The translations under genes were made by a program, and so were the position numbers. A DNA stretch of 12,518 nucleotides from a virus (lineage: Duplodnaviria > Heunggongvirae > Uroviricota > Caudoviricetes): IMG/VR virus record IMGVR_UViG_2526164688_000041. One strand, written 5' to 3'. The notes under the pieces were generated by a model that made no database searches, was not told where the DNA came from, and saw only the letters and a program-made list of their open reading frames with translations. Shown piece after piece: positions 1 through 1,673 of this stretch; the stretch's first letter is position 1, and every line of letters begins with the position of its first letter.

Positions 1-339
1 ATGTCATATCTGAATTTAAGACTTTACCAGCGAAACACACAATGCTTGCATATTCGTAAGCATCGTTTGGCTGGTTTTTTTGTCCGGCTCTTTGTCGCCT
101 GTGCTTTTGCCGCACAGACACCTTTGTCATCTGCCGAACTCTATTTTAATCCGCGCTTTTTAGCGGATGATCCCCAGGCTGTGGCTGATTTATCGCGTTT
201 TGAAAATGGGCAAGAATTACCGCCAGGGACGTATCGTGTCGATATCTATTTGAATAATGGTTATATGGCAACGCGTGATGTCACATTTAATACGGGCGAC
301 AGCGAACAAGGGATTGTTCCCTGCCTGACACGCGCGTAA
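1..339 (+). pseudogene. fimD: 5' fragment (first 112 codons) of a fimbrial outer-membrane usher gene, FimD-like; frame ends at TAA 337-339 where phage DNA begins
   Basis: Translation MSYLNLRLYQRNTQCLHIRKHRLAGFFVRL...GIVPCLTRA matches, from memory, the N-terminus of E. coli type 1 fimbrial usher FimD with a few substitutions. Ushers are roughly 850 aa, so 112 aa is a truncation. An oppositely oriented integrase gene ends 48 bp downstream. Confidence 0.6.
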
Positions 340-386
340 CGTGACAGGGATTAAGGGTAAACTAACTGATTTTGCAAGTTTTTATT

Positions 387-1673
387 TTACCCAACTTTCT
401 TATGGGGCATACATGGGACACTTTCAGATAGTCTTTTGTTAAGGAGTTCTATCTGTTCGTGATTGTTGTCTTTCATCCATGCTCCGTAAACATTGAATAC
501 CATTTGTGCGTTTGTGTGGCCCATCTGGCTTGCGATAAAACTAGGATTAGCTCCTGCGGCAAGTGACCAGCATGCATAAGTATGCCTGGATTGGTACGAT
601 TTTCTGTGTCTCAGACCTGCGCGTTTTAAGATACTTGTCCATGACTCCCTGATGGAGTCAACCTTGTAGTGAGGTCCGGACAACTGCTGCTGTTTTGTTA
701 CCTGAGGACTAAAAACAAAAGTGCATTTATGCACAGCAGTTCTCCCATATTCCCTCTGCTTCACCTCTACAGAATGTTGCTTTCCAAGCATGGTCATTTC
801 CGCCTGGCTTTTAAGAGCATCAATAGCTGGTTGAACCAGATGAATTGTCCTTCCGGTGCCTGCATCGGTTTTTGGTGGAGTGAATTCGCCAAGTTTTGTA
901 TAATTTCTACGGATGGTTATAGTCCTTGCTTTAAGGTCTATATCTTCCCATGCCAGCGATACCAACTCCCCGTGACGAATACCCGTGTATACAGCGAGAA
1001 TCCACAGGTTTTTTGTTTGTTGATGACGGCAAGCCTCAATAAAACGAATAAATTCGTCACGGGTGAGAGGATCTGGTTTTACCTTGGACTTTTTTAAGGG
1101 AGCCAGACCGTTAAATGGGTTTCCTGAGGTATAACCATTATCTGTTGCAAATTGAAACATTCCAGCTATGGTTGTCATATAGTAGTTTACCGTGACCACT
1201 GAGCGCCCTTTTATGGAAGAAGTCTTTCCATTAGAAAGCTTTTGGTAACCGGTCAACAAATCTCTCCTTACGAAAAGTAAATCCTCTTTTGTTATGGATG
1301 AAACCAGTTTTTTTTCACCTAACATTGGTAACATGTTTTTAATTACTGACTGGTAACGGTTAAGTGCATTCGCACAAATCTCAATTTTCTTAAGGTCCAA
1401 CCATTTTTCCGAAAGTGCCTTAACGGTTATCTCTCTTTTTCCCAGACCAAAGTGTTTCAGGTTAGGGGAATTAGGGAACTGCGCGGCGTAGTCGAAACTC
1501 CCCATTCTGATTGCAAAACAAACGGAAGTGCGAAGTTCACCAGCGATCTTCCGGTTTTTGGCTGTGTCAGGAACACCGAGGTTTTCTCTGACACGTTTGC
1601 CATTATAGTGAAACCATATACGGAGTGATCCTCCATGGTTTTCAACGCCTGTCGGGTATGATGCGTTACTCAT
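387..1673 (-). CDS. int: Phage integrase, tyrosine site-specific recombinase (lambda/Rac IntR-like)
   Basis: 428-aa ORF with ATG at 1673 and a GGGAGG Shine-Dalgarno 4 nt upstream. N-terminal region resembles arm-binding domains of lambdoid integrases (..GSLRIWFHYNGKRVRENLG..FDYAAQFPNS..). C-terminal catalytic region carries conserved motifs (..TGIRHGEL.., ..SRHTYACW.., ..NVYGAW..). It sits at the prophage end next to the disrupted host gene. Confidence 0.9.
   Translation of the reverse strand: MSNASYPTGVENHGGSLRIWFHYNGKRVRENLGVPDTAKNRKIAGELRTSVCFAIRMGSFDYAAQFPNSPNLKHFGLGKREITVKALSEKWLDLKKIEICANALNRYQSVIKNMLPMLGEKKLVSSITKEDLLFVRRDLLTGYQKLSNGKTSSIKGRSVVTVNYYMTTIAGMFQFATDNGYTSGNPFNGLAPLKKSKVKPDPLTRDEFIRFIEACRHQQTKNLWILAVYTGIRHGELVSLAWEDIDLKARTITIRRNYTKLGEFTPPKTDAGTGRTIHLVQPAIDALKSQAEMTMLGKQHSVEVKQREYGRTAVHKCTFVFSPQVTKQQQLSGPHYKVDSIRESWTSILKRAGLRHRKSYQSRHTYACWSLAAGANPSFIASQMGHTNAQMVFNVYGAWMKDNNHEQIELLNKRLSESVPCMPHKKVG

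Follow-up and report, generated by a model that had tools for sequence, protein, structure and literature searches.

How did a lambdoid prophage come to lie inside fimD, the gene for the structural usher of type 1 fimbriae, and does the insertion act on fimbriation? The locus in question is a 12,518-nt stretch of the IMG/VR virus record IMGVR_UViG_2526164688_000041 (Caudoviricetes), here called the window. It opens with an open reading frame (ORF) at positions 1-339, which has an ATG start, 112 codons and a TAA stop at 337-339. A preliminary description, made from the sequence alone, recognised in this ORF the signal peptide and N-terminal domain of a FimD-like protein, proposed that a prophage is integrated inside fimD and truncates it at codon 112, and pointed to the leftward integrase gene ending 48 bp from the TAA as a typical arrangement of an integrase gene (int) and a left attachment site (attL). 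These points are borne out by the comparisons below. We conclude with high confidence that the window carries the left junction (attL) of a lambdoid prophage of about 53 kb, which entered fimD by means of its integrase (Int) at a secondary (pseudo-attB) site. The features and attachment sequences of the junction are as follows.

1-336, plus strand: 5' fragment of fimD, codons 1-112, encoding the signal peptide and mature residues 1-67 of the usher N-terminal domain
329-336, no strand: crossover core CACGCGCG, duplicated at both prophage ends; fimD nt 329-336 in K-12
329-349, no strand: canonical 21-bp att core CACGCGCGTAACGTGACAGGG, of which bases 337-349 are phage-derived
337-339, plus strand: TAA stop supplied by the phage (CAA in fimD becomes TAA, from the comparison of attB with attL)
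337-386, no strand: non-coding start of the P' arm of attL, with 99-100% identity to mlrA-resident prophages from base 325 or 337 onward
387-1673, minus strand: tyrosine integrase of the yehV/mlrA type, 428 aa (Pfam Arm-DNA-bind_2 2.1e-24, Phage_integrase 4.7e-18)
402-421, plus strand: candidate arm-type Int sites, a pair of ATGGGRCAY motifs with a spacing of 11 bp and the only two copies in the window
attB (K-12 fimD): ...ctgaCACGCGCGcaactcgcc
attL (window): ...ctgaCACGCGCGtaacgtgacaggg
attR (DEC9B): ...gttgcgtCACGCGCGcaacttgcc
attB(fimD) junction sequence: CACGCGCGCAACTTGCC
attP junction sequence: GTTGCGTCACGCGCGTAACGTGAC

The fimD fragment and the two ends of the prophage

Alignment of positions 1-336 with fimD codons 1-112 of K-12 showed 329 of 336 identical nucleotides and 109 of 112 identical amino acids, and placed the breakpoint after nt 336. 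The 112-codon product matches the Pfam domain PapC_N (E = 3.5e-18, covering model positions 1-64 of 146), aligns with residues 1-112 of full-length FimD (PDB 6e14_D) and matches residues 1-67 of 1ze3_D, a 125-residue construct of the FimD N-terminal domain. The PapC_N domain and the near-identity to E. coli FimD both assign the product to the PapC/FimD family. The gene also has the fim operon position downstream of fimC, with fimE-fimA-fimI-fimC preceding the identical sequence in strain DEC9B and in draft contigs. The complete usher architecture (Usher beta-barrel, PapC_C, 878 aa) is absent, the ORF ending at codon 112. No usher sequence was found in any frame past base 336, the DNA being phage-derived from base 337, and an intact usher continuing in another frame beyond 339, an outcome which the preliminary description had considered, is not present. 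The phage bases after the core read TAA, so that FimD stops after residue 112 and the stub contains no foreign residues. Positions 1-336 are thus a gene fragment and encode no functional usher: the stub consists of the signal peptide and about half of the N-terminal domain, without pore, plug or C-terminal domains. Judged from the established role of FimD, a stub with 67 mature residues would be unable to form the outer-membrane assembly pore. ARAGORN identified no tRNA or tmRNA anywhere in the 12,518-nt window, in agreement with the earlier remark that the target is not a gene of this kind.

A search with window 240-440 as junction query of a set of 5,426 complete E. coli genomes yielded the fimD junction in three of them, DEC9B, 7_33_46A and F2_407_2_2. 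Apart from DEC9B, these carriers are bovine isolates (two of the three). DEC9B is an stx-negative O26:H11 strain of sequence type 29 (ST29), isolated in the USA in 1979 (PMC5592225). On the left side in DEC9B, nanC, fimE, fimA, fimI and fimC are followed by the truncated fimD, int and the excisionase gene xis. The right end, located about 53 kb away, contains tail genes, tccP2 and a dinI-like gene, after which the chromosome resumes; beyond the right attachment site (attR) fimD continues for its other 2,309 nt, and fimF, fimG, fimH and gntP come next. In the complete genomes with this junction the other end of the prophage therefore adjoins the rest of fimD, as the preliminary description had anticipated. 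A truncated fimG downstream of the prophage was considered and rejected: its start codon and sequence are intact and the annotated start alone differs.

The duplicated core that was to be expected at attL and attR was found as the 8-mer CACGCGCG, which in the att alignment is the only stretch identical in attB(fimD), attL, attR and attP; the attR copy is located at L003 44525-44532 of DEC9B. When window 1-328 is connected with the attR side, the result is an ORF of 2,637 nt and 878 codons without internal stop. This rejoined gene is identical at 2636 of 2637 positions to the uninterrupted fimD of OkiPb01717 and UTME-10, two strains with closely related fim loci, which settles the comparison with an uninterrupted locus. 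Complete P and P' arms flank the core, the 8-bp duplication is reciprocal and zero host bases were lost. The right arm shows about 92% identity to its counterpart in O157:H7 genomes, for example RIMD 0509939, where it lies beside a DinI-like gene.

The integrase, its usual target mlrA and the recurrence of the fimD junction

The integrase is identical over 428 of 428 residues to the copy beside mlrA in strain CE10. It has the arm-DNA-binding and catalytic domains and the adjacent excisionase of a lambda-type integrase, an assignment made at the domain level. The int-xis segment shows 98-99.7% nucleotide identity to VT1-Sakai, YYZ-2008, BP-4795, JLK-2012, Stx2a_1447 and PhiR5_1. VT1-Sakai (Sp15), YYZ-2008, BP-4795 and JLK-2012 are known as phages that integrate in yehV (mlrA), in part from record annotation. 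A further source for the yehV integration of these four phages is PMC8065619. Window 329-349 equals the 21-mer that the depositors of YYZ-2008 and JLK-2012 annotated as direct repeat/attL (CACGCGCGTAACGTGACAGGG). This 21-mer is matched at 20/21 positions by mlrA of K-12 and at 21/21 by mlrA of DEC9B. The corresponding fimD sequence matches at 15/21 positions in K-12 and at 16/21 in the carrier allele, and the contiguous match covers the first 8 bp only.

The mlrA-type attL was present in 458 of the 5,426 complete genomes, compared to three with the fimD type. Of 58 integrase-bearing records sampled at even spacing, 57 had the integrase at mlrA and a single one had it at fimD. Together with the identity of the integrase, this division indicates an mlrA-specific integrase for which fimD is a site of rare, secondary use. 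An altered specificity of the integrase was rejected on the basis of the 428/428 identity to the mlrA-resident copy. By int-xis and by the 21-bp core on the phage side of attL the prophage belongs to the yehV/mlrA family, whereas its junction lies at fimD nt 336 and mlrA of DEC9B is intact; it is a member of this family by integrase, xis and core, not by location. The preliminary description, which was silent on the phage's own target, is therefore right about the insertion in fimD and has to be extended: the phage is not fimD-specific and carries an mlrA integrase and core. In CE10, RefSeq annotates the interrupted mlrA (L002 2341-3027) as a 228-aa MlrA with its start codon in phage DNA. The phage arm gives the interrupted gene a replacement 5' end, and some annotations consequently fail to flag the disruption.

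About 210 contigs (282 index blocks) have a record of the exact 112-aa product. Over a length of 5,010 nt, contig LPYV01000033.1 (GCA_001572265.1) agrees with the window at every base. All three complete genomes and several draft contigs contain an insertion sequence (IS) of the IS3 family, about 1.3 kb long, at approximately 3084/3085 in the ORF at 3074-3589 (minus strand). This insertion is absent from the window and from LPYV01000033.1, and mismatches to the IS-bearing loci start at base 3085; lacking it, the window represents an IS-free member of the same clone. Two further backgrounds have kept fimB. Contig L016 has the same junction with fim genes that are about 1.1% diverged, the differences being evenly spread. 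In contig L018 (Logan SRR1609857) the junction is identical and lies on another fimD allele (P0003: V31, A40). The fim operon of L018 is about 2.3% diverged and its int-xis segment is 96.9% identical; homology to the phage in the window ends after base 2216, and the early/immunity region is unrelated. A different phage in a different host, joined at the same 8 bp, indicates an independent integration and a site that is used recurrently. The early genes of L018 (8392-12339) encode a DUF5406 protein, a 226-aa helix-turn-helix (HTH) protein and a 248-aa S24 repressor and include a YdaS-like gene.

Contigs ending at CACGCGCG(c) (L017, L020-L025) were considered as mixed attB/attL populations; this was not accepted, the native base being present. 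Their ends at fimD nt 336/337 with the native C, which recur in several unrelated assemblies, are probably partial genes at contig ends, brought in as a selection effect of the look-up by exact product. One of them, L020, contains at 3301-6337 an inverted, 5'-truncated fimD joined to the 3' end of fimC, followed by fimD 1-337, an arrangement that is unexplained.

We propose that attP recombined with a pseudo-attB in fimD in the standard integrative manner of lambda-type phages. Strand exchange would have occurred within the 8 identical bp, leaving the 8-mer duplicated at both ends and all host bases in place. The prophage separates fimF, fimG and fimH from the fimA promoter. As only the first 8 of the 21 bp are shared with fimD, the junctions suggest strand exchange within the left-hand 8-mer, and the Int overlap region may fall within the 21-bp core's left 8 bp. 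The proposal rests on how both junctions are built and on the identity of the integrase to mlrA-resident copies; the fimD site is also rarely used, mlrA is vacant in one carrier, and the event has recurred. It has the characteristics of secondary-site integration: an identical integrase with a strongly preferred different primary site (458 mlrA versus 3 fimD), a partial core match (16/21), a crossover in an identical stretch and a reciprocal duplication. Among the CACGCGCG sites in the 385 kb of sequence covered (both strands counted), fimD is the best match outside mlrA, with 16/21 compared to at most 12/21. A rough binomial estimate gives p = 0.0056 per 8-mer site for at least 8/13 further matches; with a number of 8-mer sites per genome that is our own estimate, roughly one such site is expected per genome of this size, which makes it plausible that fimD ranks first, or close to first, among available pseudo-sites. 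PMC8065619, citing Serra-Moreno 2007, records secondary-site use by integrases of Shiga toxin (Stx)-type phages. Excision may also be possible, given that int and xis are intact and that the exchanged 8 bp are common to attL and attR.

The ATGGGRCAY motifs may be part of the same attachment site. Besides the two copies in the window, three are present on the other arm (L003 44381-44411) in an 11-bp phase, and all five have the same orientation. The pattern was defined after the sequence had been seen and the counts are not above chance, with 18/200 and 9/100 shuffles reaching the observed numbers. It is their clustering and 11-bp phasing beside the core, and nothing else, that is suggestive of arm-type sites, and we regard all five motifs as candidates.

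Several points weigh against secondary-site integration as proposed here. Secondary sites are classically used when the primary site is missing or occupied; DEC9B, in contrast, has an intact and empty mlrA and a single copy of the integrase. The crossover is placed by sequence comparison of the junctions, and the candidate arm-type sites are statistically uncompelling by count alone. Integration and excision activity is deduced from assembled sequence.

An assembly chimera, or illegitimate or homologous recombination in place of Int-mediated integration, is hardly conceivable as the origin of the junction. Nothing specific speaks for it apart from the fact that prophage repeats in general often break or mis-join assemblies, whereas the junction is base for base the same in three independently closed genomes and in many draft and read-based assemblies, and at either end a complete attP arm meets the chromosome exactly at the core, the 8 bp being reciprocally duplicated and all host sequence retained. 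A phage dedicated to fimD, with fimD as its primary attB, would explain the clean int-attL geometry and the occurrence of the junction on about 210 contigs. It is very improbable, however, and was rejected in view of the identity of the integrase to mlrA-resident copies, the better match of the 21-bp core to mlrA (21/21 versus 16/21 for fimD) and the distribution over complete genomes (458 versus 3).

The use of fimD could also have been forced, mlrA being unavailable at the time of infection, occupied and later vacated, or still occupied in a double lysogen. This is a possibility that we consider doubtful. According to PMC8065619, citing Serra-Moreno 2007, an occupied or deleted primary site is the usual trigger for the use of secondary sites. 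Contigs L016 and L019, both from k=31 Logan assemblies, end at 6358, exactly 30 nt past the core start, which is where a de Bruijn graph would break if the phage arm had a second left-hand context; the ends are consistent with such a context, which might be an mlrA attL in a double lysogen or attP circles. In DEC9B, however, mlrA is flanked by btsS and yohO, has its full length and contains the 21-bp core without mismatch, so that an occupied or deleted primary site does not apply today in this strain and a damaged or occupied mlrA was rejected for it; DEC9B has one copy of the integrase, and contig L018 crosses the junction without sign of a second context. Integration by an mlrA-specific integrase at a secondary site in fimD, whether or not it was forced, is the explanation carried forward below.

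State of the fim operon in carrier strains

In the main carrier clone a deletion of 1,357 bp relative to K-12 has removed the whole of fimB; its junction (L001 4678-4685 in DEC9B) shows an overlap of 8 bp. The same deletion junction is present in nine of the 5,426 complete genomes, six of which are prophage-free and have an intact fimD. The invertible element fimS of DEC9B (L001 5587-5900) is collinear with the MG1655 reference. The hexamers TTGAGA-N18-TATGAT, which we take to be those of the fimA promoter, are in DEC9B on the strand pointing away from fimA. By this orientation, fimS is in phase OFF in the main carrier clone. Given that fimB is absent and the switch is OFF, the fim operon is likely locked OFF, and type 1 fimbriae were probably already silent in this clone. 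The last prophage genes point in the direction opposite to fimF, fimG and fimH. In UTME-10, which is fimB-deleted and has no prophage in fimD, an IS2 element is located between fimE and fimA (L008 10222-11450), which suggests that the fim operon has decayed further and independently in this group. At mlrA, UTME-10 has an integrase of the same type as the window's (99.3% identity).

The preliminary description expected the insertion to abolish fimbrial assembly and to tie excision of the prophage to the restoration of adhesion. Loss of assembly would follow from the established requirement for the usher. The second expectation holds at the sequence level, where an intact fimD is rebuilt, and probably fails in the main clone: with fimB deleted and the switch OFF, excision would mend fimD but probably not restore fimbriation.

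A phage regulatory switch (active lysogeny), in which a reversible prophage in fimD restores type 1 fimbriation upon regulated excision, is accordingly unlikely. It would be in line with the intact int and xis, with the in silico rejoining, in which precise excision regenerates an intact fimD of 878 codons, and with the use of the same site by at least two different phages, in some backgrounds with fimB retained. In the main clone, however, fimB was lost by the 1,357-bp deletion and the fim switch is OFF, and the occurrence of this deletion in six phage-free complete genomes means that repair of fimD would probably be insufficient for fimbriae. The prophage also shows decay in complete genomes (an inserted IS3 element and a tape-measure gene that contains an internal stop), fimD is a poor and rare match to the phage's real target, and the assembled sequences contain no sign of excision. 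The otherwise functional pathway that active lysogeny presupposes is missing in the main clone; the minor backgrounds L016 and L018 have fimB. An order of events in which the fimB deletion came first and the insertion was neutral was rejected as a general account, applying to the main clone only. All four combinations of fimB presence or absence and prophage presence or absence exist, so that a single linear order of events is unsupported.

We give a slightly better, still low, chance to a broader possibility, namely that fimD nt 329-336 is a genuine recurrent alternative attB of the whole yehV/mlrA integrase family and that the prophage is a reversible switch in fimB-positive hosts. If true, prophage induction would be coupled to adhesion, in parallel to the gating of curli through mlrA by the same phages.

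The prophage beyond the junction and its relation to known phages

Beyond the fimD stub the window is a typical lambdoid early region, with the following genes in addition to int.

1707-1961, minus strand: excisionase XisR/DUF1233 (Pfam DUF1233 1.2e-28; xisR in RefSeq)
1980-2360, minus strand: two small early-left genes, for a 44-aa hypothetical protein and a DUF4222 protein (RefSeq annotation of DEC9B; Pfam DUF4222 8.1e-14)
2445-3589, minus strand: DUF551 protein (2445-3077) and 171-aa hypothetical protein (3074-3589)
3591-4996, minus strand: two Ead/Ea22-like genes (Pfam Ead_Ea22 5.6e-30 and 1.1e-27)
4993-7511, minus strand: hypothetical protein, YfdR-like 5'-deoxynucleotidase, YfdQ (DUF2303) and YfdP, lambdoid early-left accessory genes (Pfam DUF2303 2e-92, a weak YfdR-like match, RefSeq names)
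8234-8926, minus strand: CI-like repressor with HTH and Peptidase_S24 domains (Pfam Peptidase_S24 5.9e-19, HTH_3 1.1e-10)
9024-12518, plus strand: rightward early operon (Pfam matches, RefSeq annotation of DEC9B) encoding a Cro-like HTH protein, a CII-like protein (Phage_CP76), a Rha/Ash regulator, a hypothetical protein, a replication-initiator-like protein (HTH_36/DnaD_N) and, at the window end, a PerC-family regulator

The PerC-family protein is 164 aa long (12024-12518, plus strand; Pfam PerC 2.1e-09). PerC/Pch-type regulators are activators of virulence genes of the enterocyte effacement locus (LEE), and through this protein the prophage may carry regulatory cargo besides tccP2. The latter, a type III effector gene, is located near the right end of the DEC9B prophage (L003 41158-42192). 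This prophage further contains a tRNA Ile-Arg-Arg cluster (L003 11082-11333) and a tape-measure gene (L003 29363-32605) with an internal stop, on account of which the copy in DEC9B is probably no longer a functional phage. No stx gene is annotated in the whole DEC9B prophage; the late region lies outside the window, so this result covers DEC9B and not the window's own strain.

With the lambdoid phages at yehV/mlrA the prophage shares the int-attL geometry, the lambdoid early region, int-xis and the 21-bp core. It differs from them in lying in fimD, where exact identity at the crossover is limited to 8 bp, and in that the DEC9B copy has no annotated stx and has tccP2 near its right end. Secondary-site integration that disrupts genes has been familiar since lambda genetics and is also known for Stx phages. 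As in lambda and in the alternative sites of Stx2 phages (Serra-Moreno 2007, cited in PMC8065619), a rare and partly core-like site was used and a gene was disrupted. The fimD case departs from those in that at least one carrier has an intact, unoccupied primary site and that, among natural isolates, at least two different phages have entered the fimD site. Prophage insertion in mlrA limits curli and biofilm formation in O157:H7 and in non-O157 E. coli that produce Shiga toxin (STEC) (PMC3874044, PMC5931665). The fimD case resembles this in the integrase family and in the inactivation of a gene for surface adhesive fibres near its 5' end, but fimD encodes the structural usher of type 1 fimbriae and not a curli regulator, and the event is rare.

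An example of active lysogeny is Listeria phage phi10403S in comK. In both cases a prophage lies within an ORF that precise excision would restore; for fimD, in contrast, evidence of regulated excision is absent and the operon of the main clone is independently disabled. No description of fimD as a prophage insertion site was found in the open-access literature, including searches by the names of carrier strains. A different fimD truncation, of 591 aa, arose by deletion (PMC5106847), and PMC5592225, which covers DEC9B, does not mention fimD.

The insertion is a real event of an ordinary kind, not a new mechanism, and it has happened more than once in E. coli. It accounts for the annotated fimD pseudogene pair in carrier genomes, and the junction product can serve as a clonal marker, mainly of the fimB-deleted clone that includes the O26:H11 ST29 strain DEC9B. 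The fimD site is worth adding to the loci screened when Stx or effector prophages are mapped. As a recurrent pseudo-attB that narrows the crossover region it is of modest specialist and low general interest. For the medically important yehV/mlrA integrase family, which includes the Stx1 and Stx2 phages of O157:H7, it represents a natural, base-precise secondary att site.

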